From an uncultured Chloroflexia bacterium (GTDB lineage: Bacteria > Chloroflexota > Limnocylindria > QHBO01), in NCBI GenBank assembly GCA_963825525.1, contig CAWGTN010000002.1:1-64000 (forward strand): a stretch of 64,000 nucleotides of DNA, written 5' to 3'. Every line of letters starts with the position of its first letter. The stretch's first letter is position 1. A program made the position numbers and the translations under genes. The notes beneath the pieces are model-generated. The model was not told where the DNA came from and did not search any database. It was given only the letters and a program-made list of their open reading frames with translations. Below, one piece after another: positions 6,734-38,517 of this stretch.

Positions 6734-8040
6734 GACGAGAGTCCTGTTCCGCCACATCGACGACCCGCACCTGGCGTCGATCGATCGCTATCGCGAGCTC
6801 GGCGGCTACAAGGCGCTCGAGCGCGCCTGCAGGGAGCTCGACCCGTCCGACCTGCTCGGCTGCTTCGAGGACTCGGGCCTGCGCGGCCGCGGCGGCGCCG
6901 GCTTCTCGATGGGCAAGAAGGGCTCGTTCCTGCCCCGCGGCGAGATGCGCAAGTACGTCTGCTGCAACGCCGACGAGTCGGAGCCCGGCGCCTTCAAGGA
7001 CCGGGAGCTGATGATGAAGAACCCCCACCAGCTGATCGAGGGGGTGGCGATCGCGTCGCTCGCGGTCGGCGCCGACCTACGCCTTCATCTTCATCCGCGG
7101 CGAGTACTGGGAGATCGCCGACATCCTCGACCGCGCCGTCGCCGAGGCATACGAGGCCAACTACCTGGGGTCGAACGTGCTCAACACCCGCACCCAGGTC
7201 GAGCTCGTCGTCCACCGCGGCGCCGGCGCCTACATCTGCGGCGAGGAGACGGCGCTGCTCGACGCGCTCGAGGGCAAGCGCGGCAACCCGCGGCTGAAGC
7301 CGCCGTTCCCTGCGATCCAGGGGCTCTACGGCGGGCCGACGCTGATCAACAACGTCGAGACGCTCTCCAACCTGCCGCACATCGTCAACAACGGCTCCAA
7401 CTGGTTCAAGGAGTTCGGCACCGAGCAGTCGCCGGGCACCAAGGTGGTCTCGGTTTCCGGCTGCGTGCAGAAGCCCGGCAACTACGAGGTCGAGCTCGGC
7501 ATCCCGTCGCGCGAGCTGATCTTCGACCTCGCCGGGGGCCTGCCCGAGGGCCGCCGCGTGAAGGCCTGGTTCCCGGGCGGCTCCTCGTCGCCGGTGCTGA
7601 CCGAGGCCGAGCTCGACCTCCCGTACACGTTCGAGGAGATGGCCGAGGCCGGCTCGATGCTCGGCTCCGGGTCGATCATCGTCGTCGACGACACCGTCTC
7701 GATCCCCGACCTGGCGCTGCGCACGGCGCGCTTCTACCACCACGAGTCGTGCGGGAAGTGCACCCCGTGCCGCGAGGGGACCAACTGGACCGTGAAGATG
7801 CTCGAGCGGCTCACCCGCGGCGAGGCGACACCGATCGACCTCGAGATCGTCGCCTCGGTGCAGGAGAACATCATCGGCAACTGCCTCTGCGTGCTCGGCG
7901 ATTCGATGGCGATGCCCGTCGGCTCGATGGTGAAGAAGTTCCGCAGCGAGTTCGAAGATCGCATATCCAACGTTCCGCCCGCCTCCTCCGCTTCGCGTCC
8001 GGGGGCGGCCGGGTCAGCCGCAGGACAGGTGGCGGCATGA
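6726..8040 (+). CDS. nuoF: NADH-quinone oxidoreductase subunit F (frameshift near 7080)
   Basis: [44 protein letters not shown]. Confidence 0.96.
7979..8011 (-). repeat. Diverged inverted copy of nuo-junction repeat, inside nuoF 3' end
   Basis: CCGCCTCCTCCGCTTCGCGTCCGGGGGCGGCCG resembles the reverse complement of the 35-mer at 10448 and 12066. Confidence 0.65.
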
Positions 8041-10490
8041 GGGAGCGGCCCGAGATCACCCTGGTCGTCGACGGCGTCGAGGTCAACGCGCCCGAGGGCG
8101 AGATGCTCGTCGACGCGGCGAAGGGCGGCGACGTCGAGATCCCGGTCTTCTGTTACGAGCCGAAGCTCGGCGGGCCGGTCGGCGCCTGCCGGATGTGCCT
8201 GGTCGAGATCGAGGGGATCCCGAAGCTGCAGACCGCCTGCTCGACCCCGGTCCGCGACGGGATGGTCGTCTACACCCGCACCGACCGGGTGATCGAGGCC
8301 CAGAACGCGGTGGTCGAGTTCCTGCTCGTCAACCACCCGCTCGACTGCCCGGTGTGCGACAAGGGCGGCGAGTGCCCGCTGCAGGACATCGCGATGGGCT
8401 GGGGGCCGGGGCGCAGCCGGGTCACCGACCCGAAGCGCCACTTCCGCAAGCCGGTGCCGCTCTCGCCGCTTGTCCGGATCGACCGCGAGCGCTGCATCCT
8501 CTGCTACCGCTGCGTGCGGTTCAGCCAGGAGGTCGCCGAGGACGAGCAGCTGCAGCTGCTCGAGCGCGGCTCGTCGAGCTACGTCGGCACCTTCGACGAC
8601 CACCCCTACATCGCCCCCTTCCACGGCAACATCATCGAGCTCTGCCCCGTCGGGGCGCTGACCGCCGAGGCCTACCGGTTCCGCGCCCGGCCCTGGGACA
8701 TCGAGGACTCGGGCTCGATCTGCACCCTCTGCCCGAGCCAGTGCAACGTCAAGTTCACGGTCCGCGACGAGCGCGTCGAGCGGGTGCTGGCGCGCGACAA
8801 CCACGAGGTCGACAACGGCTGGCTCTGCGACAAGGGCCGCTTCGGCTTCCAGATGATCTCCTCCGAGGAGCGGATCACCGAGCCGCGGCTGGCCGGCAAC
8901 CGGGCCGGCTGGGAGCAGGCGCTCGATGTGGCGGCTGCGAAGCTCGGCTCCGGCCGGATCGCTGCGATCGTCGGCGGCCAGGCCTCGAACGAGGAGGCCT
9001 ACCTGGCGCAGCGGATCGCCGGCGGGAACGCGACGGCGATCGACGAGCTCCCGGCCGGGCAGCTGGCGGCGCTGTCGACCGCCGAGCTCGGCGCCTCGAT
9101 CACGGCGATCGACGCGGCCGAGTCGGTGCTGCTGATCGGCGCCGACCCGCTGAACTCGATGCCGATCCTCGACCTGCGGCTGCGCAAGGCGGTCCGCCAC
9201 AACGGGCTGCGCCTGGTGATCGCGTCCGACCACCCGACCGCGCTCGACGGCGGCGCCGAGGAGACCGCCCGTTACGCCCCGGGCGACTCCGCCGCCTTCC
9301 TGGCCGCGCTCGAGGCGGAACTCGGCCCGGACCCGGCGCCCGAGGGGCCGCACCAAGCCGACGCGGAGAGAGTCGCCGGCGAGCTGCGCCCCGGGAAGAC
9401 GCTCGTGATCTGGGGCGAGCGCCTTGGCCGCGGTCCCGACGGCCAAGCCGCTCTGAACGCCCTCCTCAGCTGCACGGCGGAGCTGAAATGCGCCGAGGCG
9501 GGCGGCGGCGTCTTCTCGGTTCCCGAGGGCGCCAACGCGCGCGGGGTCCGCGAGGTCGGCTGCGTCCCGGGCGCGGGCCCCGGATTCACCGCCACTGACC
9601 GGAGCGACGATCTGGACGCCATCAAGCACGGCCTGACCTCCGGCGAGCTCGAAGGCGTGATCCTCCTGCACGCCGACCCGGTCCGCGACCTCCCCGACGG
9701 ACCGGGCTGGGCCAAGGCCCTCAACCAGGCCCGCACGGTCATCTCGATCTCATCCTTCGACGACGCCTCGACCAAGGCGGCCGACATCGTCTTCCCCGCC
9801 GAGGCGTACGCGGAGAAGGAAGGCACGGTCACTCACCCCGACGGCCGCCTGCAGCGCCTCCGCCCGTCCGTCCCCCGCCCGGGCGAAGTCCGCCCGATCT
9901 GGCAGGTCCTCGCCGAGCTCAGCGCCGCCTTGGGCGACGAAACGGACATCGACTCGGCCCCGGAAGCCCTCGCGGCGATCGCCTCGGACGTCCCCTTCTA
10001 CGGCGGCCTCACGCCGGAGGAGATCGGCGGCACCGGCATCAGGTGGCAGACCCGTGACGCCGCAAGCGCATGGAGCGCGGGGGAAGGGGTTGTTGTCGAG
10101 GATGTCCGGTCCCAGGCGGCAACCCCATCCCCCGCGCCCTCGGGCCTCCGCCTCGGGACCTACCGAGACCTGTGGGCGAACGAGGTCACGGAGCGCAACG
10201 TCGCGCTGAAGTTCCTGGTTCCAGAGCAGCGGGTGGAGATCGCGCCCTCAGATGCCGAGAAGCTCGGTCTGACTGACGGAGACGAAGTGCAGGTCCGGTC
10301 GAACGGGACGTCCGTACACGCCCGGGTCCAGCTCCGCGAGCGCATCCGCCCCGGCGCGGCGTTCCTGATCGAGGGCACAGCGCAGAACAACGCCAACCTG
10401 CTCAACGGAGCGAGGACCGTGGAGATCACTCGAATCCCGGCCGACCCCGGCACCCCCGCAGGCGAAGCCGAGGAGGTGGCCGGGCAGTGA
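8037..10490 (+). CDS. nuoG: NADH-quinone oxidoreductase subunit G
   Basis: [46 protein letters not shown]; molybdopterin-like C-terminal part. Confidence 0.96.
10448..10482 (+). repeat. 35-bp nuo-junction repeat, inside nuoG 3' end
   Basis: CGGCACCCCCGCAGGCGAAGCCGAGGAGGTGGCCG, identical to 12066-12100. Confidence 0.9.
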
Positions 10491-26021: not shown

Positions 26022-27347
26022 ATGATTCCTCGTCTTGCCTTGACCGACGCGCGTGGGGCGGCCGCGCTGCTGCTGGTGCAACGTGCGATCGATTGGTACA
26101 TCGCCGAGGCCGCGACCGCGGAGAGTCCGCCGATCTCGGCCGCGGATGCGGGCGCGCTGCGCGCGGTGCTGGCGGGCACCGGCACCTGGCGGCCCGAGCT
26201 GTTCGAATCGGCTGATCACCTTTGGGCAGGCGATGTACAAGCTGACCGAGATGGGCCACGGTCCCGGCAGCACCGTGGCCGACGGGTTGACGGCGCTGGG
26301 CACCGTCGACGTGATGGACCCCGCCGTCGCCGCGGACCTGCGCTGGCAGTTCGATCCGAAGGTCGACGCGCAGGTCTTTGCCAAGCTGGAATTCCGCGAG
26401 ACCTCGGTCGGGATCGAAAAGGCCCAGCGCGAGAACCGCGAAGGCTGGTGGGCCCACGCCCAGCGCAACCGCGCGTTCATCCTGGATGCGGTCAAGGATC
26501 TGCCGCGCCGCCGGCACGTGCTGGTGCTGGGCGCCGGCAGTCCCTTCGATCTGCCGCTGGCCGATCTGGCGCGGCAGTTCGAGCGCATCACCCTGGTCGA
26601 CATCGACGAGGCGGCGCTGGCCGCCACGGTCAAGCTGGTCTGGAAGGATCCGGCCGAGCGGGCCCGCATCAGCACCCGGACCCTGGACTTGACCGGCATC
26701 AACAGCGCGCTGGTGCAGCGGGTGGACGAGGTCCTGGCGGCCCCGGCAGCCGGCCCCGACGAGGCCGAAGCGCGCATGAGCCGCCTCTGTCGCTCCTACC
26801 GCCTGCCCACGCCCCTCGCCTGGACCACCGGTGGCAGCGAGGAGGCTGGCGACAACCACCGCCCCGATCTGTGATCTCCAGCTGCGTGATCAGCCAGCTG
26901 GCCTGGCCGCAGCGAACCTATGCGGAACGCGGCTTCGAGGCGCGTTTTGGCCCGCTGACCGCCGCCATCGAGGCGCGCTGGTCCACCGCCTGGACCGAGC
27001 TGGCGTTGCGGGTGCAACAGGATCACATCAATGCGCTCGGCGACACCGCCGACGTGGTGGTGTTGACCTCCGACGTGGTCAGCCACCGCACCCGGCTGGA
27101 TGCTGCGGGCACCGAGCGCGACACGGGACGCAAGGCCTTGCCCCTGGGTGTGGGGGGCCTGCGCGAACGAATTCCCTCGTCGTACCAGGTGGGCCGCCAT
27201 GCCCTGTGGCAGTGGAGCCGCTATCGCCCCAACCGCAAAGGCACCGAAGGCTCACGCATGGACGTCGAAGGGGTGGTGTTGCGGCCCGCGGCGGCCGCCG
27301 GCCCCACCCAGACCGCGTCGGGGTTGTGGCTGCCCGGGCCGGGCTAG
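26022..27347 (+). CDS. Paralogous methyltransferase-fold protein with N-terminal extension (frameshifted)
   Basis: VLGAGSPFDLPL, ITLVDID, LDLTG, VISSCVISQL across frames. Confidence 0.6.
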   Translation: MIPRLALTDARGAAALLLVQRAIDWYIAEAATAESPPISAADAGALRAVLAGTGTWRPELFESADHLWAGDVQADRDGPRSRQHRGRRVDGAGHRRRDGPRRRRGPALAVRSEGRRAGLCQAGIPRDLGRDRKGPAREPRRLVGPRPAQPRVHPGCGQGSAAPPARAGAGRRQSLRSAAGRSGAAVRAHHPGRHRRGGAGRHGQAGLEGSGRAGPHQHPDPGLDRHQQRAGAAGGRGPGGPGSRPRRGRSAHEPPLSLLPPAHAPRLDHRWQRGGWRQPPPRSVISSCVISQLAWPQRTYAERGFEARFGPLTAAIEARWSTAWTELALRVQQDHINALGDTADVVVLTSDVVSHRTRLDAAGTERDTGRKALPLGVGGLRERIPSSYQVGRHALWQWSRYRPNRKGTEGSRMDVEGVVLRPAAAAGPTQTASGLWLPGPG

Positions 27348-27431
27348 CGCCACCCAACCCGAATCCATCGACCGGGGCGAGTGCCACAGCGTTGCGGCGT
27401 CGCTGCCGGCCACCTGAGCTAGATTGGATTC

Positions 27432-27797
27432 GTGGACAAAGTTTCCTCGGGCCAGCTCCGCGCTCTCGGCGAAGTCCTCTTGGCGACCGCGGGACGGGCT
27501 GCGGTCCGGCGGGGACTGCCGCTCTACTCCGCCATCTTCATTGTCGCTGTCGTGATCTTCTACGGCCGCTACGCGATGAAGGCCAGCGAGCTCGTGGACT
27601 TGCGCGGCAGTCGGCCGGGTTCCGCGGCGTCTTGCTCCTCGCCTGGGCGAGATCATCCGCGAGCGGAGGGCCGCGGGTCGCGGGACCCTGCTTGCCAGCA
27701 ACGATGCCGCCTTCGTCCGCGACGTGGGCGGCACCGGCTACCGCATCGTGGAGGGCGCCTGATCGAGGTTTCGGCCACGGCCACAAACCCGGCGTGA
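27432..27797 (+). pseudogene. Fused fragments: membrane protein N-terminus joined to an ABC-ATPase-like C-terminal tail
   Basis: LYSAIFIVAVVIFY, then from ~27648 EIIRERRAAGRGTLLASNDAAFVRDVGGTGYRIVEG (H-loop-region-like). Confidence 0.45.
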
Positions 27798-27800
27798 GGG

Positions 27801-28920
27801 CTACTCGGGCAGGACGCTGAGATCGCTGGCGCCGCCGCGCTGGTCGATGTCGTAGCGGTTGTGCGCGGAGGCGTAGTCGGGGGATTCCCAGCGGAGGTCG
27901 CCGCCGACCGCGCCCAGGTGCAGGCGGTCGACGGTGAGCGAGCTGGCGCCGCCACGGGCGAGGAAGCGGAAGGGGATGCCGGCGGGGACGGTCACGCGCA
28001 GCTTGCTGGCGCCGCCGCGGAAGCTGACCGGGACGGTGCCGGCGGGTGGCGGCAGGCGCACGCCGACGTCGCTGGCCCCGCCGACGATCTCGCAGCCGGC
28101 CAGGCGCAGCCGGCGCAGGTCGGCGTCGACCTTCGAGGCGCCGCGCAGACGCACGGTCCACGGGATGCGCTCGCTCAGCAGCAGCTCGCCGGGCTCGCTG
28201 CCGAAGAATCCGGCCAGGCTCGTCGCTGCAACACGGTGACCTGGCCGCCCTCGACGCTGACGCGGGTGGCGCGCGGGAAGCGCGCCCGGTAGAGCAGCTC
28301 GTCGTCGCAAGCGCCGATGGTGACCATCGCCGCGCCACGCGTGAAGTCGAGCCGGCCCTCCTGGAGGTGGCCGAGCGGCGCTGACGAGATGGTCGTGGTG
28401 CCCTCGGCGGCGCGCGCGCTCGTGGCCGCGGCGCCCGGCGTTCGGCCACGCAGGCGATCGGCCTCCTCGGTGAGCAGCGTCGTGGCGCGGCCGACGAAGT
28501 CGCGGATGGTCGCCACCTGGTCGCCGCTGTAGCGCGCGTACAGCTCGTTCCAGGCGCGGCCGACGGCCGAAGATGTCGGCGAGCTCGCGCGCGCGCTCGT
28601 CGATCACGCGCACGATCACCTGACGGCGATCCTGCGGATGCTCTCGCGGCGGATGAGTCCGGCCTTCTCCAGGCGATCGAGCACGCCGGTGATCGCGCCG
28701 GTGGTCAGCCCGGTCAGCTCGGCGAGTGGCCGGCGGTCACCGGCTGCGTGGCCGACGCGCGGTAGACGTAGTCGAGGCACTTCTGGTCGGTAAGCCCGAT
28801 GCCCAGGCGATCGGCCACCGCCTGGTGGAACAGCACCGTGCGCGCGCTCAGCTCGCGGCCGAGATCCTCGCCCGTGCCGATGCCGTCGGCCGGCGCGGTT
28901 GGGTCGTCGTTGTCAGGCAT
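27801..28920 (-). CDS. MarR-family regulator fused to a repetitive beta-strand C-terminal domain (frameshifted)
   Basis: FHQAVADRLGIGLTDQKCLD...LAELTGLTTGAITGVLDRLEKAG...DRR; C-terminal repeats RGASK/GGASD/GGASK/GGASS/GGASD. Confidence 0.75.
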
Positions 28921-28932
28921 GGTCGAACATTT

Positions 28933-28949
28933 ATCTCATTCAATGAGAT
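28933..28949. promoter_or_regulatory. Candidate MarR autoregulatory operator
   Basis: Perfect inverted repeat ATCTCATT-C-AATGAGAT 12 nt upstream of the MarR ATG. Confidence 0.65.
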
Positions 28950-29172
28950 GCATGAAGTCGAGCAATCTGCCGACCACGGCGAACCAGAACCGCTGCGGCA
29001 GGCCCGCCTCATCTTTCGGATGCTCGAGGCTGCGTCCGGCGTGATTCGGTACGCGTGGATTGGTGGGGACCATGGCTACGGGGACGACGTCGAGCCCTGG
29101 AGCTCCCTGGGGGGCCAAACGATGGGCATGCTCCCGACACTTCGCGAGTTCGTCGCGTCAGTTCCCGAATAA
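28948..29172 (+). CDS. Probable 3' fragment of a hypothetical protein (5' end lost at junction)
   Basis: Open frame ...LPTLREFVASVPE* ending immediately before the first 36-nt repeat. Confidence 0.4.
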   Translation: MHEVEQSADHGEPEPLRQARLIFRMLEAASGVIRYAWIGGDHGYGDDVEPWSSLGGQTMGMLPTLREFVASVPE

Positions 29173-29175
29173 TCC

Positions 29176-29212
29176 CGTGGCGCCACAGTTGGCAGTGGCG
29201 CAAGCGCCACTC
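29176..29212 (+). repeat. Cassette-boundary repeat R1
   Basis: CGTGGCGCCACAGTTGGCAGTGGCGCAAGCGCCACTC; perfect hairpin AGTGGCGC-AA-GCGCCACT; starts 3 nt after TAA. Confidence 0.75.
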
Positions 29213-29252
29213 GATCACCAAGGCGCCGCGAGGGCTTGGTGTACGTCGCCGC

Positions 29253-29576
29253 ATGCGCCGACGAATCGCGGTGGGACCCGTGCTTGCGGTCTTTGTGCTG
29301 GCGCTTGCCGGGTGTTTGGTGTGGAAGCCGCGTAACACTGACGGCGTGATGATTGTGAACGCGACGTCCGAAACGGTGACCGTCGTCGTGTTGTATCCCT
29401 CTGGAGAGAGCGATCTCGTGACGTACCGCCCTGGAGAGTCGTCAGTAGAGAACAACATGCTCAACGCGGCCGACGGCTGCACGCGATTCGCGATGGTTGC
29501 TCGGGCCAGGACGGGCGCGAGCTCGATCGACAGCCAACTCCGATCTCGTTGATGACGAGTGGCGCATCGAGGGTAA
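29253..29576 (+). CDS. Small lipoprotein, paralog of 34771-35103 (frameshift near 3' end)
   Basis: Lipobox LAGC; shares SETVTVVVLYP...TYRPGESSVENNML...GCTRF.MVAR...EWRI with the paralog. Confidence 0.75.
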
Positions 29577-29577
29577 C

Positions 29578-29613
29578 CGTGGGTCAAACTTGACAGTGGC
29601 GTAAGCGCCACTG
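29578..29613 (+). repeat. Cassette-boundary repeat R2
   Basis: CGTGGGTCAAACTTGACAGTGGCGTAAGCGCCACTG; hairpin CAGTGGCG-TAAG-CGCCACTG; starts 1 nt after TAA. Confidence 0.8.
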
Positions 29614-29628
29614 GAGCGCCGCGGCGGG

Positions 29629-30087
29629 TCAGAGGTATCCGGAGAGCCACAACACCAGAGCAAGCCCTCCGAGCCCACCTACGACGGTCAGGACGGAGCT
29701 CCACGACAGGTCCCAGTCCTCGCGACGGTACTTCAGGAAATCGTCATCAACTGATATGGACCCGGACTCTCGCGTGTTGGCCACCTTCGTGATCGCGAAC
29801 CAGGCCAGGAGCAGGCCGCTCGCGAGAAGGAAGCCGCCGTACAGCCACTCCCATCCAGCGCGGCATCCTCGTACCCCGGTGCTGTTGCATTCATAGAACC
29901 CGGTCAGAATTCCGGCGCCGACGAGCATAAAAACGGCCGCGAAGGTGAGGAGAGCATTCCGCTGCCCGATTCGTCGCTGGAGCCATGCTGCGCCCTCGTA
30001 TCCGACGCGGCGCGCCTGCCAGGCGAACCAAAAGAACAAGCGGAAGGGGGCGGAGACCACCCACCAGGCGAATCTGACAATCGGCAC
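29629..30087 (-). CDS. Hypothetical membrane protein
   Basis: 152-aa ORF with several hydrophobic segments; TATTCT 6 nt before the GTG. Confidence 0.65.
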   Translation of the reverse strand: MPIVRFAWWVVSAPFRLFFWFAWQARRVGYEGAAWLQRRIGQRNALLTFAAVFMLVGAGILTGFYECNSTGVRGCRAGWEWLYGGFLLASGLLLAWFAITKVANTRESGSISVDDDFLKYRREDWDLSWSSVLTVVGGLGGLALVLWLSGYL

Positions 30088-30412
30088 GGCCGGAGAATAA
30101 CGCCCGGGACAGGCATGCTCCTACTTGACTGCGCCAACTCGTCGAAGCGCCTGAGGGAGGAACTTAGCAGTGTCCCAAGCGCCGGTCGGAATCCCCGATG
30201 ATCCCCCATGCCAGTGCTACGGTGATCCAATGCGTCGACTCCTTCGGCCCTTGGTCACGGCCGCTCGGCTACCACCCGCCTCGATAAGCGCGTGGTAAGC
30301 GACTCCGCCTAGCATGGGTTGAGCCGTCGCGATCCTCGTCATACCCGCCCGACCGGTGTGACGTACACTCCGCGAGCTCAAGTCCCGAGCCGCTTTGGGG
30401 GAGATCAGCTCG

Positions 30413-31417
30413 ATGTTCATTCGGATCGTTTCGATGGTCGTCCTTGTCCTGCTCTTTGCAGGCGCCGGAGGCTCCGTTCGCGCTGGCTCAGTTGCCAATC
30501 GGCTTGAGGGCATTGATCGGTTCGAAACGGCTCAGCAGATCTACTTGACGCGGTATCCGGGTGGGTCTGTCCCGTTCATTCATGCCGTCTCGGGATTTAG
30601 CTGGCCAGATGCCCTCGTCGCCGGACCCGCCGCCGCGACAAGTAACGGGGTCATGCCAGGAGGCCCCGTCATCCTGACCTCAGAGACCAACAGCAAGTGG
30701 CTTTCGAAGATGGACACGCAGTTCGACCCTGAAGTCGCGTTCGTCGTGGGTGGCGAAAGTGTCATTTCCGCGGCAACGTTCTTCAACATCGAGAATCGGA
30801 CCGTCCAGTTCGAGGCGACCCGCTTGGGCGGACAGGATCGATATGCCACCGCCGCCAAGGTCACCGCAAATGCCTTCCCGGCTGCCGACCGGGTGTTCAT
30901 TGCGTCTGGCGCCAACTTTCCTGACGCGCTCAGTGCGGGAGCGGCGGCCTCGAACTTCAAGGAGCCTCTGCTGTTGGTAGCCCCGAACGCCATCCCAGCG
31001 CCGATTGCTGCGGAGCTGGAGCGGCTCAGCCCTGACACGATCGTGGTCGTCGGAGGCACGGGCGCTATTTCGCCCGGCGTCGCGACGGCGCTTCGCTCCT
31101 ACACGACCTCCCATACGAGCGCTTCTGTGCAGCGGATCGGCGGGGCAGATCGCTACGCCACCGCTGTGGCGGTCTCCCAGCAATTCTTCGCACCGGGGTC
31201 CGGCGAAGTCTTCGTCTCGACCGGTCTTAACTTCCCAGATGCCTTGGTGGCGGCGCCGCTCGGCTCTCCGATCCTTCTCGTTCCCACCACGAATGCGCCA
31301 GCCGCAGTCCTCGACGAGATCGTGCGATTGCAGCGGGGGGTCACCATTCTCGGCGGGTACGGGGCGGTCAGTGCCAACGTCGAGTCACAGATCAACGCGG
31401 CACTTCAGGGCGGCTAA
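30413..31417 (+). CDS. Secreted protein made of three cell-wall-binding repeat 2 (CWB2) motifs
   Basis: Signal peptide; RLEGIDRFETA..PDAL, RLGGQDRYATA..FPDAL, RIGGADRYATA..FPDAL. Confidence 0.85.
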   Translation: MFIRIVSMVVLVLLFAGAGGSVRAGSVANRLEGIDRFETAQQIYLTRYPGGSVPFIHAVSGFSWPDALVAGPAAATSNGVMPGGPVILTSETNSKWLSKMDTQFDPEVAFVVGGESVISAATFFNIENRTVQFEATRLGGQDRYATAAKVTANAFPAADRVFIASGANFPDALSAGAAASNFKEPLLLVAPNAIPAPIAAELERLSPDTIVVVGGTGAISPGVATALRSYTTSHTSASVQRIGGADRYATAVAVSQQFFAPGSGEVFVSTGLNFPDALVAAPLGSPILLVPTTNAPAAVLDEIVRLQRGVTILGGYGAVSANVESQINAALQGG

Positions 31418-31723
31418 GCCTGTTCAACGAGCCTGCGGTGGTCCGTTAGCTCGTGAGCAACCCGCACCGTCAAACTGAGACACTACCCGCGGCCGAGACG
31501 CTGCTCAAGGCTCAGCGACGGGCAAGGTGACCACCTGCCCCATTCTTAAAGTCAGCCCCGACCGATGGGACGACGACGCGCGTAAGCCTCACTCGAAGCC
31601 GCGAAGTTCCGCCCGCGCACGGTCCGGTAGAGTTCCGAGTCTAGCCAGGCGCCGGCCAAGCATGGTTACGCCTACTGCTGCTAAGCCGACGTTTGCACCT
31701 GTCGAAGGGCCAAGTGGTCGGCG

Positions 31724-33061
31724 CTAGGCTGGCATCGGCTCAATGTTCTGGTTCAGGCGGAAGACGTTCGTTGGGTCATATCGCCACTTGAGCTGCGCTA
31801 ACCGTCGATATTTCGACTCGCCGTAGGCGTTTTGCGCCACGCCAGTGTCGGCCTGCTCGTTGACGTAGTTCGCTTCCATAGACAGCTCGCCGAGCCGGCG
31901 CGCGGTGCTGCGGCACCAGGCGATGGCGGCCTCATCGTCTTCCGGACGGTCCCATACCCCCTGCGAGATCCAATAGAACGCGCCAGCCCTGCCGCTGTAG
32001 GCAGTTGCGCCCTCAGCGACATCGCAGACGGCGCCACCAAGCTGCAGGCAGTAGATCTCCAGCCCAGGGAGAGGCATCTCCGCAAGTGAGTCCGCGATGA
32101 TGGCGATGACGCGATCGTCCATCTCGGCAATGAACCCTCCCTTGGAGTAATACCGCCGACCCCAAGGGAGGGCCTCGTCGCTCGCGCGCTGCAACTCGAA
32201 GAATGTCGTTTCCACATTGGGATCCTGGACCCCTCGCGGGAACGAGAAGCGTTCCACAGCCGCGTCCGCGCCGATCATCGACCCGGTCCAGATCGCTCGC
32301 AGCACCAACTCGTCCTTCGTGGCGACGAAGGCCGTGGTCAGCTCGCGTGGCGCATGTGCCGCCGCGTCGCGGTATCGCATCAGCGTCTCCGCAGTGGCTG
32401 CGGTTGGATGCGTCCAGCGCCTGATCGCGACGGACCCCAGATCGTGCATGCGGAACCTGAACCTGGTGACGACGCCGAAATTGCCGCCACCGCCGCGGAT
32501 CGCCCAGAACAGCTCCGGTTGTTCATCAGCGTCAACGCGCGAAAGTCTGCCGTCTGCCGTCACGATGTCTGCTTCGATGAGATTGTCGATGGTGAGCCCA
32601 AAGCGCCGGCTGAGATAGCCCATGCCGCCTCCCAGGGTCAGGCCCCCAACGCCCGTATGCGACACCACACCGGCCGGTGTCACCAGGCCGTAGCGTTCGC
32701 CCGCTGCGTCGACGTCGCCGAGCAATGCGCCCCCGCCGACTTCGACCGTCCTCGTCTGCGGATCGACGAGCACTGCGTTCATCCGTGACAGATCACAGAC
32801 GATGCCGTTGTCGCAGGTCCCGAGGCCCGCGAAGCTATGGCCGCCGCACCGCACGGCCAGAGGCAGCCCGGAATCTCCAGCGATGCTCACGATCTTCTGG
32901 ACATCGCTCGCCGTCGCGGCCTGCACGATCGCGCCAGGCATGCGTTCGACGACGGCGTTGTACACGCGACGAAGACGATCGTAGTCGCCATGGCTCGCAC
33001 CGACGACCGTGCCATCCAGCTGTGCTCGCGCCAATTGCCCAGCAACTGCTGTGTCGACCAA
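31724..33061 (-). CDS. FAD-binding oxidoreductase, BBE/VAO family
   Basis: VRCGGHS, TGVGGLTLGGG, LFWAIRGGGGNFGVVT, YVNE, KWRYDPTNVFRLNQNI. Confidence 0.93.
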   Translation of the reverse strand: MVDTAVAGQLARAQLDGTVVGASHGDYDRLRRVYNAVVERMPGAIVQAATASDVQKIVSIAGDSGLPLAVRCGGHSFAGLGTCDNGIVCDLSRMNAVLVDPQTRTVEVGGGALLGDVDAAGERYGLVTPAGVVSHTGVGGLTLGGGMGYLSRRFGLTIDNLIEADIVTADGRLSRVDADEQPELFWAIRGGGGNFGVVTRFRFRMHDLGSVAIRRWTHPTAATAETLMRYRDAAAHAPRELTTAFVATKDELVLRAIWTGSMIGADAAVERFSFPRGVQDPNVETTFFELQRASDEALPWGRRYYSKGGFIAEMDDRVIAIIADSLAEMPLPGLEIYCLQLGGAVCDVAEGATAYSGRAGAFYWISQGVWDRPEDDEAAIAWCRSTARRLGELSMEANYVNEQADTGVAQNAYGESKYRRLAQLKWRYDPTNVFRLNQNIEPMPA

Positions 33062-33203
33062 TGGATACCTCAAGTGGCATTCGGGGGCAGAAAGGCATTG
33101 GCGTCCGAGCGCGGACCCGCCGACCGAGTATGCACAAGAGCCTAAGGACAATTCCGACCTGCGACGCACATCCGGCTCGAACGGCTTAGGCCCAGCCAGA
33201 CAG

Positions 33204-33239
33204 CGTGGGAGAAACTTGACACTGACGCAAGCGCCCCTG
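33204..33239 (+). repeat. Cassette-boundary repeat R3 (degenerate hairpin)
   Basis: CGTGGGAGAAACTTGACACTGACGCAAGCGCCCCTG; 30/36 identical to R2 by manual alignment. Confidence 0.75.
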
Positions 33240-33345
33240 TGACGCCACAGCCAAGCCGTCGGGCTGAGGTGGGCCCAGACCGCCCTGTGGCGCCCAAGCG
33301 TGAGCTATCCTCCGCGCAAATCAGTGTGCGGGACCGGAGGGCGGT

Positions 33346-34695
33346 GTGGACATCGTGGCTGATCTGCGAGCGCGCACGCGGGGTGAGGTGTTGGCGCCGC
33401 GGGACGGCGGGTACGAGGCAGCCCGCGCGGCGTACAACGCATTGGCCACCGGCCAGCCCGCCTACATCTTCCGCCCGGCAGACGTGCCCGGCATCGTGGC
33501 GGCCGTCAGGTGGGCCGGGGAAGTCGACCTCCCCATCGGCGTCCGCGGAGGTGGCCACAGCGTGGCCGGACATTCGTCGCCGAACGGCGCGCTCCTCGTG
33601 GACCTGTCGCGTTGGCGTGGTGCCGTCGTCGATCCTGTCGCACGCACGGCGGAGGCGCTCGCTGGATCCCGGCTGATGGATCTGGACGCGGCGACTGCCG
33701 CGTACACGCTTGCGGCTCCTTCGGGCACGTTCATCGACACCGGCATCGGCGGCCTAACGCTGACCGGCGGCATTAGCTGGATCGTGGCCTCACAGGGATT
33801 CGCATGCGACGCTCTCATCGGGGCCAAGATGGTGACGATCGACGGCGACGTCATCGACGTCGACGACCAGCACGAGCCGGAACTGCTGTGGGGCCTCCGC
33901 GGAGGCGGCGGCAACTTCGGGATCATTACCCACCTGCGATACGCACTGACGCCCGTGCCGCGCATGTTCGGGGGAGCGCTCCGCTTTCGAGGTGCCGGTA
34001 TCCGTGACGTGATCATGCGCGTGTTGGAGATCGAAGCGACGGCACCCGACGAGCTCGTTCTGGCGATCGTTGCGTGGCGCGGAGAGGACGGCTCGCCGGG
34101 GATCTCGGTTAACTTCGCCTGGCGCGGTGACCCAGACGCCGGGGCGGCCGCTGTTCGCGCTCTTACCGACCACCAAGCTCTATTCGAGTCGGACGTCAAG
34201 GCGATGAGTTGGCTCCAGCAGCAAGCTCAATATGAGCCGATCCCGTTCGGTCTTCGTCAGTACTGGAAGGGCCATCTCGTCCGCACGTTGGACGAGACCC
34301 TGGCGGATGCGCTGATCGCGGCGGCGGCCGATGCAGGGGAATCATCTTTCTGCCTCGTGGAGCTCATCCACGGCGCCGCCCACCGCATTCCAGAGGCTTC
34401 CGCGGCATTTGGTGGACGTGCCGCCGTTGCCAATGTGACGGCGCTCGCCATCTGGGATGACGCGGAGGCTGACGAGCGGGAGATCGCCTGGGCGCGAAGC
34501 TTCGCCGACTCGGTGGCGCATCTCTCGCTTCGAGGCGGTGGGTACCTCAACTATCCCGAGCTCGATCAGACGGCTGCGCGGATAGCTGCAGCCTTTCCGT
34601 CAGCGACCTGGGACCGGCTGCGGCAGGTCAAGCTTCGACTCGATCCAGCCAACCGGCTGCGCTTCAACGCCAACATTCCACCGGCCGACGGCTGA
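33346..34695 (+). CDS. FAD-binding oxidoreductase, BBE/VAO family
   Basis: VRGGGHS, TGIGGLTLTGG, LWGLRGGGGNFGII, YLNY, LDPANRLRFNANI. Confidence 0.93.
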   Translation: MDIVADLRARTRGEVLAPRDGGYEAARAAYNALATGQPAYIFRPADVPGIVAAVRWAGEVDLPIGVRGGGHSVAGHSSPNGALLVDLSRWRGAVVDPVARTAEALAGSRLMDLDAATAAYTLAAPSGTFIDTGIGGLTLTGGISWIVASQGFACDALIGAKMVTIDGDVIDVDDQHEPELLWGLRGGGGNFGIITHLRYALTPVPRMFGGALRFRGAGIRDVIMRVLEIEATAPDELVLAIVAWRGEDGSPGISVNFAWRGDPDAGAAAVRALTDHQALFESDVKAMSWLQQQAQYEPIPFGLRQYWKGHLVRTLDETLADALIAAAADAGESSFCLVELIHGAAHRIPEASAAFGGRAAVANVTALAIWDDAEADEREIAWARSFADSVAHLSLRGGGYLNYPELDQTAARIAAAFPSATWDRLRQVKLRLDPANRLRFNANIPPADG

Positions 34696-34770
34696 AGGCC
34701 TTCACTCGCGCTCGCCAAGCGGCAGTAGCTTCCGCCAGCGAGTAGAGTCCGCCTGCTACCTTGGCCGCCG

Positions 34771-35103
34771 ATGAGTCGATCACTCCGCGCCATCGTGTCG
34801 CTTCCCCTCCTGGGACTGGCATGTATGGGCTGCTTGCTGGGGGAGCCGAGGGACACCAGCGGCGTCCGCATCGTGAATTCAAGTTCCGAAACCGTGACGG
34901 TGGTTGTTCTGTATCCCGAACCAGCGGGCGAGAGCGAGCTGACTACGTACCGCCCAGGTGAGTCGTCGGTGGAGAACAACATGCTCGACCGAGAAGGTGG
35001 TTGTACGCGCTTCGTCATGGTCGCCCGGACCGAGGATGGCACCGAGATCGATCGTCAGGCCGCCCCGATCTGCCGGCATGCGGAATGGCGAATCGGCGAG
35101 TAG
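34771..35103 (+). CDS. Small lipoprotein, paralog of 29253-29576
   Basis: Signal ending LACMGC; shared core with the upstream paralog; conserved Cys. Confidence 0.8.
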   Translation: MSRSLRAIVSLPLLGLACMGCLLGEPRDTSGVRIVNSSSETVTVVVLYPEPAGESELTTYRPGESSVENNMLDREGGCTRFVMVARTEDGTEIDRQAAPICRHAEWRIGE

Positions 35104-35106
35104 CCG

Positions 35107-35142
35107 CTTGGGTCGAACTTGACAGTGGCGCAAGCGATATTG
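35107..35142 (+). repeat. Cassette-boundary repeat R4
   Basis: CTTGGGTCGAACTTGACAGTGGCGCAAGCGATATTG; 30/36 identical to R2; starts 3 nt after TAG. Confidence 0.8.
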
Positions 35143-35361
35143 CCGCTCCACGGTCCGTGCGTGCACGTTCAGGCGATGATCGCCGTGTCGTCCGGCCGCT
35201 TAGGCGGTCGAGGTCCGTGATGTCGTTTGCGCCGCTTTTCTTCGGCGCGTCGTTGGCGACGCCGTTCGGCCCGAGTCAGGCGGTCTCGCGTCGTCGGCCG
35301 GCCTAGGAGCGATCGAAGCCATCGCAGCATCATCAGGCGCTATCAGATGGGCCCCGCGCTG

Positions 35362-35556
35362 AGGTGGGACGACGACGCCGGCAAGCGACACTGGAAGACG
35401 GAGGTGGTCGTCGGATCACTCGAGATGCTGTCGGGCCGATCGATGAAGGAGTACGCCCGGGAAGCTGAGGCCGTGGCCAACGCACCGGATGAATCGGCTC
35501 CGGTGGCGGCCAACGGCGCTGCCACCAACGATCTCGAGGCGGCGATCGCGATGTGA
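35362..35556 (+). pseudogene. ssb: C-terminal remnant of a single-stranded DNA-binding protein
   Basis: WDDDAGKRHWKTEVVVGSLEML matches the end of the SSB OB fold; no N-terminal half; hairpin 35561-35598 follows. Confidence 0.7.
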
Positions 35557-35712
35557 TCCGTCGGGCGACGAGCCATCCCCTCCGGTCCCGTCGCCCGATC
35601 AACGATCGACGCCCGCTTGCGTCAACGTCAGTCAGTACGGATGCGGCGCTGGCGGCTCGGGTAGCTCTTGACGCCGACCGGCCACTGACCGTCATGTAGG
35701 ATGCGCAACGCA

Positions 35713-35997
35713 ATGGAAACTGGTTTCATCCCCCAGTTGGCCGTAGTCGCCGTCAGTGCGGCCGCGGCGGCGGCTATCGCCATTTTCCAGCACTACAGCG
35801 GAAACAACTTCGTTTATCTGCTGGTCGGAATGGTTGTCTTCCTCGGCGTCCTAGGTTGGACAGATCCTGATCCAAACCTCCATCCATACAAGGTATTGCT
35901 GGCGGGCCTGGGAGCCGGGATGTGGGTGAGCGCCGTGCGTGACGAGTCACGACGTCGGCGGTCGGCCCGAGATTCAGATCGCACCATCCCGGGTTAG
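35713..35997 (+). CDS. Small membrane protein
   Basis: Three hydrophobic segments; TAGGAT shortly upstream. Confidence 0.6.
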   Translation: METGFIPQLAVVAVSAAAAAAIAIFQHYSGNNFVYLLVGMVVFLGVLGWTDPDPNLHPYKVLLAGLGAGMWVSAVRDESRRRRSARDSDRTIPG

Positions 35998-36196
35998 CTT
36001 GCCTCGACTCCGTCAGCGTCGCGGAAGGCTCGCGCCGTCGTTCTCTTGCTGTCCAGCCAGGGGACGATGGCCCTCGCGGACCGGAGGCTTTCAGGACTCC
36101 CGCGACTTCGTGGGGCGCCCGACCACCGTCCGGCGGCTGCTGGGTGCGGGCGAGGATGCGCTTCGATCCGAGCTATGGGGAGCTAAACCCCGGGTC

Positions 36197-36712
36197 TCAG
36201 TCCTCGTCGCAGCTGTCGGGCTTCGGGTCGTCCACGCACACAACAAACACGACGCCGATGCCCTCGCTCACCTGCTCGGGGCCACCGTTGATTCGGTAGT
36301 GAAGCCGGACGTTGTCGAGCTGATAGCGGCCTGGCCGCTCGGCAGTGATCTCGGCGACGATCCCGATGGTGTTGTCGGGGCTGTCGGAGCCGGTGAGGTT
36401 CGTGAAGGTGGCACCAGCCAGATCATGCAGCTCCTCGCCGATGAGACGGTTGCCGTCCGGCTTGAGGACGGGTGGGGAGAAGTAGAACTGAACGGTGGCG
36501 TCGTCGCCGACTCCGACAGGCTCCGCCGCGAGGAGTTCGATCTCGTCTCCCGGTCGAGGGGTCAGGAAGAGAACCGTGGTCGTTGCCGGTAGTCCCGGCG
36601 CAACGGGAACGCCCGCGCTGGTGTGGGGAGGCATCGTCGGGAGCGGGTAGGGATCTACAGCTTGCGCAGCGCAGGCTGTGAGAATGAATGTCAGTGCCGC
36701 GACCAACCGCAT
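36197..36712 (-). CDS. Hypothetical lipoprotein
   Basis: MRLVAALTFILTAC lipobox; GGAGGG RBS; C-terminal Cys pair. Confidence 0.7.
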   Translation of the reverse strand: MRLVAALTFILTACAAQAVDPYPLPTMPPHTSAGVPVAPGLPATTTVLFLTPRPGDEIELLAAEPVGVGDDATVQFYFSPPVLKPDGNRLIGEELHDLAGATFTNLTGSDSPDNTIGIVAEITAERPGRYQLDNVRLHYRINGGPEQVSEGIGVVFVVCVDDPKPDSCDED

Positions 36713-36945
36713 GTCAGATCCCTCCCTCGCCAACGACCCCGGGCAGCTTCGTCGAAGACTGGGCCCCCGCAATCCGCGCGTCAACGGTACGGTTCGCCGC
36801 CAGCTCGTCACGGTAGCCCCGGAGGCGAGTGGCATGAGTCAGGCTGAGCGGCTCTGTGACGGGTAGTGCCGGTGTGCGCGAACTGATCGTGGAGCCACGA
36901 GGTCGCAAACTTGGCCCCTCCAGCGTCCAGTAGACTCATGGACCT

Positions 36946-37326
36946 ATGACCCGACTCATCGTCCTCGGTCTCGCCATCGTGCTCGTGGGCTGTGGAGCTC
37001 CCACTGCCCCCAACTCCGCCGTCGACCATCACAGCCGAATCGAGGTGGTCAACTTGTTGGAGTCTGGCGCACCACCCGAACGCGATGAGTTCGGCAGCGT
37101 CGTGCTGCCCAACGAGTACGCCCATCTATCGGACATGGGTCTGATCGAAGTGAGAGACGATCCGTTCATGGTCTTCTTCACTACGTGGGTCGGGGGCAGT
37201 CCAGACCCCTACTGCGGTTACGAGTACTCCCCGGACCCTGCGGCCGTCGTGCTAGACCCGAGGGCAAGCGGTACCGGCGAGGCTGAGCCACTCGGAGGCG
37301 GGTGGTACTGGATCTGCGCCAGCTGA
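36946..37326 (+). CDS. Hypothetical lipoprotein
   Basis: MTRLIVLGLAIVLVGC lipobox; YCGYEYSPD...LGGGWYWIC. Confidence 0.7.
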   Translation: MTRLIVLGLAIVLVGCGAPTAPNSAVDHHSRIEVVNLLESGAPPERDEFGSVVLPNEYAHLSDMGLIEVRDDPFMVFFTTWVGGSPDPYCGYEYSPDPAAVVLDPRASGTGEAEPLGGGWYWICAS

Positions 37327-37352
37327 CCCTGGAAGGGCGGAGCCTGGCGTGG

Positions 37353-37853
37353 TTACATGCTTGCCCCGCATCGACGGAGGATCTCGTCGACAACGTGGTC
37401 GATCGGAGCGCTGGCGTCGATGACAACGCCGTTCTCCGGGACGTCGCCCTTCGTCTGATGCCATCCCACGATGAGTTCGCGTTCGGTCGGCTTTCCGCCA
37501 CCCCACTCCTCGTCCGGTCGCTCGTCCAGCCGCCGCTGCAACGTGGCGAGGTCCACTTCGAGGACAAAGACTTCGTCGAACAGATCGATGAACTTCGAGA
37601 AGTTCCTTGATCCACCGCAGAAGAAAGTGGCCGTTTCACTCTGGTCGGCGACCAGGGCTCTCACCTTGTCCACATCCCAGATGTGGTGCTCGTGTCCGCC
37701 GACCTGCGTAGCTTCACCCGTTGCCGGATCGCCCCGGTAGGCCAGCTCGCGGTCACCGTGAATGGCGTGGTGGCCGCGCCGCTGAAGCTCATCGCACACG
37801 GACGTCTTGCCGGTGCCCGAAAGACCCTCGATCAGGTAGTTCTTCCTGCCCAC
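37353..37853 (-). CDS. P-loop nucleoside/nucleotide kinase-like protein
   Basis: Walker A EGLSGTGKT; FFCGGSRN; LQRRL. Confidence 0.8.
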   Translation of the reverse strand: MGRKNYLIEGLSGTGKTSVCDELQRRGHHAIHGDRELAYRGDPATGEATQVGGHEHHIWDVDKVRALVADQSETATFFCGGSRNFSKFIDLFDEVFVLEVDLATLQRRLDERPDEEWGGGKPTERELIVGWHQTKGDVPENGVVIDASAPIDHVVDEILRRCGASM

Positions 37854-37944
37854 GTGCTGGAGAATACGAGAAGCCCGCGAGCAGCGATGAGTTTCGCGTC
37901 GTCGGGTGGTCATACCGTCCACCCGGTACCGAGAAGGACATCCG

Positions 37945-38508
37945 ATGCGCAGCGTGACCTATTCCATGGGCGTCTCACTCGACGGCTACATCGTGGGACC
38001 GGACGGCGGCTTCGACTGGACGACGCCCGACAAGGAGGTCTTTCGCTTCTGGATCGACGAGATCCGAGATGTCGGCGTCCACATACTGGGACGGCGCCTG
38101 TACGAGACGATGCTGTACTGGGAGACCGCCGACCAGAATCCGTCGCTTGACGACGATGAGCCCGAGTGGGCCGCGCTGTGGAATCCGCTTCCGAAGGTGG
38201 TGTTCTCCACCACGCTGTCGGCGGTGGAGGGCAATGCCCGTCTTGCGTCCGGCGGGTTGGCGGAGGAGGTCGAGCGACTGCGGGCCGAGCCGGGTGAGGG
38301 CGACATCGCGATCGGCGGCGCGACGCTCGCCGCCGAGGCGGCCGAATTGGGTCTCATCGATGAGTACCGGGCCATCGTCCACCCGGTGCTGGTCGGGGGC
38401 GGCATTCCGTTCTTTCCCCGGCGCGAGCGTCGGGTGGATCTCGAGCTCGTCGGGACGCGCACCTTCAACTCGAGATTCGTCTTGCTCAGCTACCGCGTCG
38501 CGCGTTAG
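37945..38508 (+). CDS. Dihydrofolate reductase/RibD C-terminal family protein
   Basis: SLDGYI, LGRRLYE, PKVVFSTTL, GGATLA, IDEY, PVLVGGG. Confidence 0.9.
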   Translation: MRSVTYSMGVSLDGYIVGPDGGFDWTTPDKEVFRFWIDEIRDVGVHILGRRLYETMLYWETADQNPSLDDDEPEWAALWNPLPKVVFSTTLSAVEGNARLASGGLAEEVERLRAEPGEGDIAIGGATLAAEAAELGLIDEYRAIVHPVLVGGGIPFFPRRERRVDLELVGTRTFNSRFVLLSYRVAR

Positions 38509-38517
38509 GCCGAATGC

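Follow-up and report, generated by a model that had tools for sequence, protein, structure and literature searches.

The stretch analyzed here, referred to as the window, comprises 64,000 nucleotides of an uncultured Chloroflexota bacterium (assembly GCA_963825525.1, contig CAWGTN010000002.1, positions 1 to 64,000, forward strand). It holds an island of low G+C content in which modules are joined at copies of a short repeat, the subject of the present study, which is considered below as a candidate attachment (att) site of large serine recombinases (LSRs). In each copy a central AA separates a conserved left arm of 22 nt from a less strictly conserved right arm of 10 nt. Two types of left arm are distinguished, one (P-type) belonging to the motif itself and the other (B-type) resembling ssb2, a conserved paralog of the single-stranded DNA-binding protein (SSB) gene. 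The features of the island, including its open reading frames (ORFs), are as follows.

28958..38510, plus strand: low-G+C island, 62-66% G+C against 70-74% in the flanks, with modules joined at sites
29180..29213, plus strand: site R1, P-type left arm 29180-29201, AA 29202-29203, right arm 29204-29213
29253..29552, plus strand: small putative lipoprotein gene, no family match, paralog of 34771-35103
29581..29614, plus strand: site R2, the best copy, AA 29603-29604
29629..30087, minus strand: ORF of 152 aa, no family match
30155..30188, plus strand: site R5, degenerate, AA 30177-30178, E 9.6e-06
30395..31417, plus strand: gene for a CWB2 protein with three cell-wall-binding repeats (PF04122, E 2e-53)
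31566..31595, plus strand: site with an ssb2-like (B-type) 18-nt left arm, AA 31584-31585, right arm 31586-31595
31724..33169, minus strand: BBE-type oxidase linked to flavin adenine dinucleotide (FAD), with a homolog at 83% in genome G020
33207..33240, plus strand: site R3, AA 33229-33230, with homology breakpoints here
33346..34695, plus strand: second BBE-type FAD-linked oxidase, in a module 92-93% identical in G070 and G066
34700..34728, plus strand: degenerate site, AA 34717-34718, with the homology to G062 ending at 34719
34771..35103, plus strand: lipoprotein paralog gene, whose homology with the first lipoprotein copy extends into the following site
35110..35143, plus strand: site R4, AA 35132-35133
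35365..35394, plus strand: attB-type site, 18-nt ssb2 left arm 35365-35382, AA 35383-35384, ssb2 right arm 35385-35394
35385..35597, plus strand: displaced ssb2 3' remnant (residues ~92-148, stop codon 35554-35556, 93% to the ssb2 of contig C1) with a terminator-like hairpin
35598..38510, no strand assigned: further variable modules, absent from the empty locus of G077
35701-35997, 36197-36835 (minus strand) and 36946-37326: ORFs within these variable modules
37353-37922, minus strand: AAA_18 kinase-like gene within the variable modules
37906-38508: RibD_C gene within the variable modules

The array holds eight sites in total, including the B-type copies at 31566 and 35365 and the degenerate copy at 34700. 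Its modules follow the order lipoprotein, 152-aa ORF, CWB2, FAD oxidase (minus strand), FAD oxidase (plus strand), lipoprotein paralog, a 220-nt piece and the ssb2 3' remnant. The two lipoprotein modules are 75% identical over approximately 210 nt (34927-35136 against 29403-29607). The left edge of the island coincides with the start of a 99.2% match to contig C1 of the same assembly, while at the right edge the closest relative, G077, displays an intact ssb2, 6 nt and then the homolog of window position 38511 onward (L103 2493-2731, 2738-2815). The 3' end of the second oxidase module is 93% identical in G062, where it resides in a hot spot between Rce1 and hemW. R3 is flanked by the two divergent, paralogous BBE-type oxidases, with the CWB2 gene upstream, and this cargo looks like extracytoplasmic or cell-surface functions.

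A repeat search of the window recovered four plus-strand copies (29177, 29578, 33204 and 35107) with 71-77% identity over 48 nt, the copy at 29578 serving as reference. A 21-nt core with at most 3 mismatches gave five plus-strand matches (29186, 29587, 30161, 33213 and 35116) and none in each of 100 shuffled controls. The same-strand repeat of ~36 nt described in an earlier note on this DNA is therefore real, its four named copies being joined by a weaker fifth, R5 (30152-30187), that had been overlooked. Recomputation returned the same identity of 30/36 to R2 for both R3 and R4, while R1 requires a register shift of 1 nt, since it matches R2 at only 11/36 positions without gaps from 29176 and at 71% over 48 nt from 29177. 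The claim that three copies begin 1-3 nt after a plus-strand stop codon is partly right, as it holds for R1 and R4, which start 3 nt past TAA (29170-29172) and TAG (35101-35103), respectively, but not for R2 or R3: the called ORF before R2 ends at 29552, 25 nt earlier, and R3 is located between divergent genes (31724-33169 minus, 33346-34695 plus) with no real plus-strand gene preceding it.

The scan of the source assembly that the same note had called for was performed on this genome (G000, a 2.58-Mb assembly in 4 contigs, 91.8% complete). A 27-nt core with at most 7 substitutions yielded 9 matches, of which 5 are in the window, 3 in a duplicate on contig C1 and 1 is at chance level. The motif is thus local, being restricted to the low-G+C island and its 99.2% duplicate at the end of C1 (8 copies) rather than scattered over the genome, and is therefore not a dispersed repeat of the repetitive extragenic palindromic (REP) type. 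The duplicated stretch (window 28958-30711 against C1 287977-289734, 1.76 kb, 99.2% identity) runs from the end of a 128-aa ORF to the start of the CWB2 gene and takes in R1, R2 and R5 together with the lipoprotein gene and the 152-aa ORF; beyond it, only 52 unique bases remain to the end of C1. Of the conserved flanks of the locus, the left one (dpp, nadE, ssb2) is found on C1 and the right one begins at window position 38511, indicating that window 1-28957 is joined to the island by a rearrangement or an assembly join.

Among relatives, the 21-nt core with at most 2 mismatches was detected in 27 of 63 genus genomes, among them 10 of the 13 high-quality ones, and in none of 24 sampled genomes of other genera of the class; a reversed-pattern control gave 0 everywhere. 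Copies number 1-5 per genome, often in tight arrays, and the named public records that carry the motif are labelled Chloroflexota or Candidatus Limnocylindria. The host group is one genus of Chloroflexota, placed in the class Limnocylindria by the labels of the motif-bearing relatives. An exact motif scan of viral contigs gave 0 matches, and an Rfam scan of 27000-37000 at E <= 1 returned only two chance-level eukaryotic matches. It should be noted that hemW proteins are only 65-75% identical within the genus, which makes the genus-wide retention of a 22-nt non-coding stretch notable.

Site anatomy was assessed on 47 distinct copies, 5 of which come from the unpublished genomes G034 and G064 and enter the conservation, pairing and upstream-ORF counts; of the other results, only one rests on unpublished genomes, as 1 of 5 weak recombinase relatives is in G034. 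The centre is AA in 41 of the 47 copies (36/42 without G034 and G064). Information content amounts to 27.7 bits in the left arm and 12.7 bits in the right (27.6 and 13.3 bits without these two genomes), a contrast that is partly built in, since the model used to gather the copies comprised the left arm plus AAGCG. The 3' half had been read in the earlier note as a hairpin. The dyad is indeed present in R1 and R2 (8/9 positions), whereas pairing is lost across the family with no compensatory change: all 9 positions are pairable in just 4 of the 47 copies, and the pair at -4/+4 is pairable in 21/47 with unpaired majority states, which argues against a hairpin. The dyad is better read as two inverted protein half-sites (the inner half-sites) around an AA crossover. 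A co-oriented coding-like ORF ends within 70 nt upstream at 20/47 sites, which fits an arm that closes a module. On G015:C60 the motif (91-111) is opposite in orientation to ssb2 (6139-6579) at a distance of 6 kb, so the same-strand order is not universal.

The gene that recurs beside these sites is ssb2, which adjoins nadE and in this genome is located at the end of C1 (286648-287094). It is of full length in 45 of the 63 genus genomes, with 81-100% protein identity, and is cut at the site in three (G007, G017 and G032). Junctions between motif and ssb2 align to intact ssb2 genes from the first base past AA in G017 (twice), G013, G019, G073 and L039 (two copies); in the window, homology to intact ssb2 genes begins at 35385. 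Within ssb2, the AA forms codon positions 1 and 2 of the Lys in the peptide DDAG-KRHW. The clearest case is that of G017, where the 5' half of ssb2 on contig C3 ends at the site and the 3' half on C25 stands behind the motif. When the halves are joined at AA, DDAGKRHWKT is restored in frame, with no duplication. In G077, whose ssb2 is 99% identical, the ssb2 locus is empty, while G021 carries only the AAA_18 module there; the ssb2 end is joined to 37359-37368 both in G021 and in a contig of run X5. Judged from these junctions, the primary chromosomal target (attB) lies inside ssb2.

Several further observations were made on ssb2. Its protein is approximately 33% identical to the ribosomal-operon SSB (the rpsF-ssb-rpsR copy, e.g. 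L038 5465-5932), is more conserved (81-100%) than hemW (65-75%), and has a C-terminal tail that lacks the usual acidic tip. On L072 (G073:C55, 2384-2740), in the Rce1-hemW hot spot, the motif and an ssb2 3' fragment are followed by an ssb2 middle fragment (residues ~48-96), a circularly permuted order such as the insertion of an ssb2-carrying circle by way of its own site would produce.

Genomes that share one side of a site were compared in order to locate the switch in homology, measured as ungapped identity over 70 nt on each side. In five independent genome pairs the switch occurs at the central dinucleotide.

G009/G080: left 67/70, right 22/70
G071/G072: left 62/70, right 16/70
G013/G019: left 94% over 448 nt, right 18/70
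G033/G077: left 84% over 134 nt, right 22/70
Window R3/G070: left 22/70, right 60/70 (93% over 1476 nt)

G070 and G066 match the window only rightwards from 33227-33229, and in G070 the left partner of the second oxidase module, joined to it at AA, is the 18-nt ssb2 arm instead of the motif arm. A different joint of R3 is observed on environmental contigs of runs X1, X5 and X6, in which the R3 left arm and AA are joined to the ssb2 3' part and 33231-35384 are missing. With a mere 24 nt on the short side of the X1 joint, the stronger witness is the 4-kb contig of run X5, which continues into the AAA_18 and RibD_C genes. The proposal that the repeat marks module boundaries is thereby borne out, as presence/absence breakpoints fall exactly at the repeat both in related genomes and on environmental contigs. 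The same modules recur in the second hot spot between Rce1 and hemW, an interval that ranges from 118 nt to 4.3 kb among 22 genomes, and arrays are also found at a secondary locus near malate synthase. On L056 (G002:C22), short G+C-rich tandem repeats with units of ~10-16 nt precede an inserted NUDIX-like ORF in the Rce1-hemW interval.

A serine recombinase stands directly at the split target in relatives, consistent with the suggestion of the earlier note that the site serves a site-specific recombinase encoded outside the window. In G017, the 5' half of ssb2 is followed by AA, a 25-nt arm and the start codon of a 411-aa protein (L075:6653-7888), in which a Resolvase domain (E 5e-26) and a weak zinc ribbon were recognized; the recombinases of L113 and L108 are alike in this respect. 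The arm beside this gene is the inverted motif left arm, 16/28 identical in register, a score reached by only 4 of ~38,000 28-mers of L023. From the recombinase gene to the contig end (L075, G017:C3, ~7900-8088), at least 4 tandem copies of a ~33-nt unit were observed. Relatives of the enzyme, 54-62% identical, are present on 7 metagenome loci. Those of L107/L113 (one sequence in two records) and L108 are 60-62% identical to the G017 enzyme and show the same order of ssb2 5' part, AA, inverted arm and ATG, the L107/L113 arm before the ATG closely matching the inverted motif arm, with a single indel; on L111 the ssb2 piece is on the other strand. The recombinase gene starts 6-8 nt beyond the arm. 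L113 holds a whole 6.4-kb element, with the recombinase, a DUF3987 protein, a helix-turn-helix protein and a DNA methylase, and a motif copy at its end, while the presumed element of G017 carries RepSA-like and Ltp-like genes.

At E <= 1e-20 the recombinase family comprises 388 proteins among 8000 candidates scored. In 53 members scanned, Resolvase was found in 53, Zn_ribbon_recom in 51 and Recombinase in 6. The nearest curated (NCBIfam) models are XisF, followed by CcrA, CcrC and CcrB, all far below their cut-offs. The arrangement of a resolvase catalytic domain with a C-terminal zinc-ribbon region at an element end, as in LSRs, is therefore present in the relatives and not in the window. An attP in the form of an imperfect inverted repeat of ~50 bp around a central dinucleotide is outlined by the arms of G017 and L107/L113. 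Conservative exchange with a 2-bp centre and without target duplication agrees with the sequence comparisons, in which a staggered cut would be invisible. On viral contigs, relatives of the recombinase occur at 3 loci (29-45% identity) with their own dyads before the gene and no ssb2 piece; the dyad on L114 is weakly motif-like (nhmmer E 0.72) and suggestive only. On L115 (150-306), the relative is 39% identical, and its own 10-nt inverted repeat and a TAGAGT box precede the start codon, which suggests that the layout of site, -10 box and start codon may be a trait of the family.

Regarding the TTGACA of the left arm, it is nearly invariant across copies and, as had been noted before, no -10 box follows it in any window copy. 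The arm beside the recombinase gene provides TAGAGT, TATGCT or TAGAAT 6-8 nt before the start codon. Genes of the genus also show TAGACT-like boxes 6-9 nt before start codons (L057-L074 and L028 upstream of hemW; L056 and L066), which suggests that transcripts in the genus may be leaderless or nearly so. In an excised circle, the TTGACA of the motif would be placed 18-19 nt upstream of the TAnnnT box in P', the arm adjoining the recombinase gene. TTGACA thus most likely supplies the -35 box of a promoter that is assembled only in the circle, and its occurrence without a -10 box in integrated copies would follow from the position of the matching -10 box on the other end of recombinase-bearing elements. 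In Tn4451/Tn4453, the circular intermediate of an LSR element (TnpX) reportedly forms the recombinase promoter at the joint, as is said to have been shown by experiment. The likeness resides in the joint-formed promoter, which for the present elements is proposed from the positions of the boxes (TTGACA, 18-19 nt, TAnnnT, 6-8 nt, start codon).

We consider it probable, with good confidence, that the repeat is a double-stranded att site of LSR integrative elements and that the window represents a tandem accretion of att-bounded modules. According to the proposed mechanism, the left arm would provide the P half-site with which a mobile module ends on the right, AA would be the point of strand exchange, and the right arm would be bound by the same enzyme. 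Autonomous elements are 6-10 kb in length, carry replication-type and methylase genes as cargo, and have the recombinase gene abutting the other end, with P' (the inverted left arm) directly before its start codon. The recombinase family described above would catalyze the exchanges and would also move recombinase-less modules in trans. In the window, mostly one-gene modules would have accreted between ssb2, now on C1, and its displaced 3' remnant at 35385-35597. As no serine recombinase was found in the assembly, the array would be at rest unless an enzyme comes from outside.

A number of observations weigh against the interpretation as LSR att sites. Searches of this genome for a serine recombinase (Resolvase and Recombinase models; tblastn with the G017 enzyme, best E 0.74) found none, an absence that is not proven at 91.8% completeness. 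Relatives of the G017 enzyme are present in 5 of the 63 genus genomes against 27 of 63 for the motif, a full close copy being found only in G017, and none of the 218 proteins called within 6.5 kb of the motif at 17 loci of relatives matches a recombinase family. Two of the metagenome loci (L109/L110 and L112) lack an ssb2 piece before the recombinase gene. Some homology edges lie away from sites, namely those at C2 28958 and 30711 against C1 and the one just past the ssb2 terminator at 35601-35606. To our knowledge, canonical LSRs recombine attP with attB only, so that the mixed combinations of arms observed here need a permissive enzyme, a directionality factor or a long history. The motif was detected in only 5 of the 22 Rce1-hemW intervals and not in the 1.9-kb filling of that interval in this genome; the many filled intervals without a detectable motif indicate that other processes also add genes there. 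The partly built-in contrast between the arms belongs here as well. Finally, all comparisons rest on metagenome-assembled genomes, and the evidence consists of sequence comparison rather than observed recombination.

Two further readings of the small modules are each rather unlikely on the present evidence, and they differ in whether such modules move. In the first, the sites are inert scars, left by old integrations of recombinase-bearing elements whose interiors have decayed, so that the one-gene modules were never mobile and the array is dead. The missing recombinase, the degenerate copies (R5, 34700-34728 and 31566-31595), the shifted 3' end of the first lipoprotein gene relative to its paralog and the homology edges away from sites are all compatible with decay. 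However, the 22-nt left arm is kept between species with hemW of only 65-75% identity, and conservation ends at the outer edge of the arms, as expected of selected sites. Left modules of 97-98% identity are found in different species with unrelated right partners, and the alternative R3 joint on environmental contigs likewise speaks for exchange. In the second, which is put forward tentatively, a serine recombinase would run an integron-like capture: cassettes of 0.2-1.6 kb that lack a recombinase and terminate in the 22-nt arm would be cut out and re-inserted singly in trans at the AA of any partner site, moving between the ssb2 site and the hot spots at Rce1-hemW and near malate synthase and between species, with the enzyme expressed only from the circle promoter. 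As a bolder extension of this second reading, the SSB paralog that serves as target might contribute to the reaction, perhaps as a directionality cofactor; in PMC11795197, an SSB-type protein is described as acting in this capacity for the TG1 integrase.

It is very unlikely that the repeat is a promoter or operator, with TTGACA as a -35 box and the dyad as the site of a repressor or MerR-type activator of a local regulon. The near invariance of TTGACA, a dyad that fills the 19-nt stretch after it in a MerR-like geometry, and the position of R1, R5 and R3 upstream of plus-strand genes would suit such a role. Nevertheless, no TAnnnT box follows any window copy, the TAGACT of promoters in the genus stands 6-9 nt ahead of start codons, downstream of R2 comes the 3' end of a convergent gene, and the neighboring genes vary by genome with no regulator traveling with the motif. 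The breaks of homology at AA and the fusion to ssb2 would also be left without explanation. As a separate candidate, an actinobacterial DNA-damage promoter was considered and dropped, given that the motif-bearing relatives are Chloroflexota and that the motif is absent from the rest of the genome.

Still less probable is the proposal of the earlier note that a folded single-strand hairpin is recognized by a tyrosine integrase, as in integrons, or by an HUH nuclease. It would be favored by the same-strand, gene-spaced copies, often just past stop codons (the 20 of 47 sites with an upstream co-oriented ORF), and by the near-perfect dyad of R1 and R2, but neither part of it stands. The hairpin is not conserved and shows no compensatory change. 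No IntI gene adjoins the array: Phage_integrase matches in this genome are confined to C2:441 kb, C2:476 kb and a broken one at C2:990 kb, that is 400-960 kb away, and none was found among the proteins called around the motif in the window, on C1 and at 17 loci of relatives. The anatomy of attC is lacking too, since its outer end motifs are absent from the copies on inspection, as had been stated, and only 4/47 copies are fully pairable. With respect to HUH enzymes of the REP/RAYT or IS200/IS605 kind, which call for dispersed copies and a Y1 transposase gene, the genome has 8 local copies and no Y1_Tnp match, and the enzyme at the split target is a serine recombinase. For a Xer/dif reading, dif-like patterns gave no match in this genome, a result that is uninformative. 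Least probable of all is a bidirectional terminator or REP-like structural repeat, for although a G+C-rich dyad stands just after genes at R1, R2 and R4, the surroundings of R3 and R5 are divergent promoter regions, most members of the family have an imperfect stem, and the only 8 genome copies are all in one island and its duplicate, with no Rfam match.

The interpretation as LSR att sites places the locus in a kind that is already known, namely the building of genomic islands by serine recombinases. The nearest counterpart within the phylum is provided by the ssrA islands of Dehalococcoides. In excerpts of PMC3146451, these islands of the serine recombinase DsiB are described as inserting in a conserved single-copy gene with the integration module beside attL, as lined up several in a row behind the target and bounded by repeats of its 3' part, and as having a short conserved element-derived motif just upstream of each target repeat; the 15 islands that lack an integration module are interpreted in that paper as elements mobilizable in cis and brought together by accretion. 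The phylum, insertion in a conserved gene, an integration module at one junction, tandem islands, a motif before the target repeat and units without an integration module are all shared with the present system. The target in Dehalococcoides is the 3' end of transfer-messenger RNA, whereas here it is an internal site of the protein gene ssb2, which elements can leave split. The Dehalococcoides enzyme is the 540-aa DsiB with DsiA, whereas that of the present system has ~400 aa and stands alone. The ssrA islands are also far larger than the window modules, which measure 0.4-1.6 kb with one gene each, and arrays are found here at secondary loci as well (Rce1-hemW and near malate synthase).

A second counterpart is the staphylococcal cassette chromosome (SCC), in which LSR-type recombinases use one site in a conserved gene and composite arrays contain several att repeats, some units being recombinase-less. 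Composite SCC/SCCmec islands (CcrAB/CcrC) are the subject of PMC9430635 and PMC3900703 and are mentioned in PMC3146451. The features of tandem accretion seen in SCC and ssrA islands, one conserved-gene site and att-bounded tandem units of which some lack a recombinase, are all found in the present locus. Host phylum, target gene and module size differ from SCC, and the recombinase matches the CcrA/B/C models in the catalytic domain only (30-59 bits against cut-offs of 700-900), so that, as judged by the Ccr models, it does not fall in the Ccr/DsiB lineage.

Likeness to other systems is partial. An integron cassette carries most of its site at the 3' end and a short piece at the 5' end, arrays can exist without the enzyme, and a tyrosine recombinase acts on a folded single strand. 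The window resembles integrons and integrase-less attC clusters in its array of mostly one-gene cassettes free of the enzyme and in the unequal division of the site between the two ends of a cassette, and just as paralogous integron cassettes share a site, the homology between the two lipoprotein modules continues into the site behind them. It differs in the serine recombinase acting on a duplex dyad with a 2-bp centre, in the mixed orientation of genes and in having no common promoter. The XisF/fdxN element, SpoIVCA/skin and A118 in comK are LSR elements inside a protein-coding gene that can be restored exactly on excision. Insertion inside a coding gene that can be restored exactly is common to both, whereas for ssb2 no developmental role is indicated, the gene being intact in 45/63 genomes with variable DNA behind it.

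Features new to this kind of system are the host group, the internal ssb2 target, the compact enzyme family, the one-gene modules, the secondary hot spots and the proposed split promoter. No description of such a system was found in the limited library searched, which has no paper covering both Limnocylindria and recombinases and in which the papers on serine integrases that mention ssb do not, as far as judged, name an ssb gene as a target. For a Chloroflexota lineage that is uncultured and known mainly from metagenomes, the att-site arrays offer a concrete mechanism of gene flux and explain why such loci break assemblies. A candidate attB, attP and crossover dinucleotide are defined for an abundant serine recombinase family of compact size (~400 aa), and serine recombinases of this kind are sought as tools for DNA integration. 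If the small recombinase-less modules are indeed mobile, arrays of single-gene cassettes would not be unique to the integrons of tyrosine recombinases.

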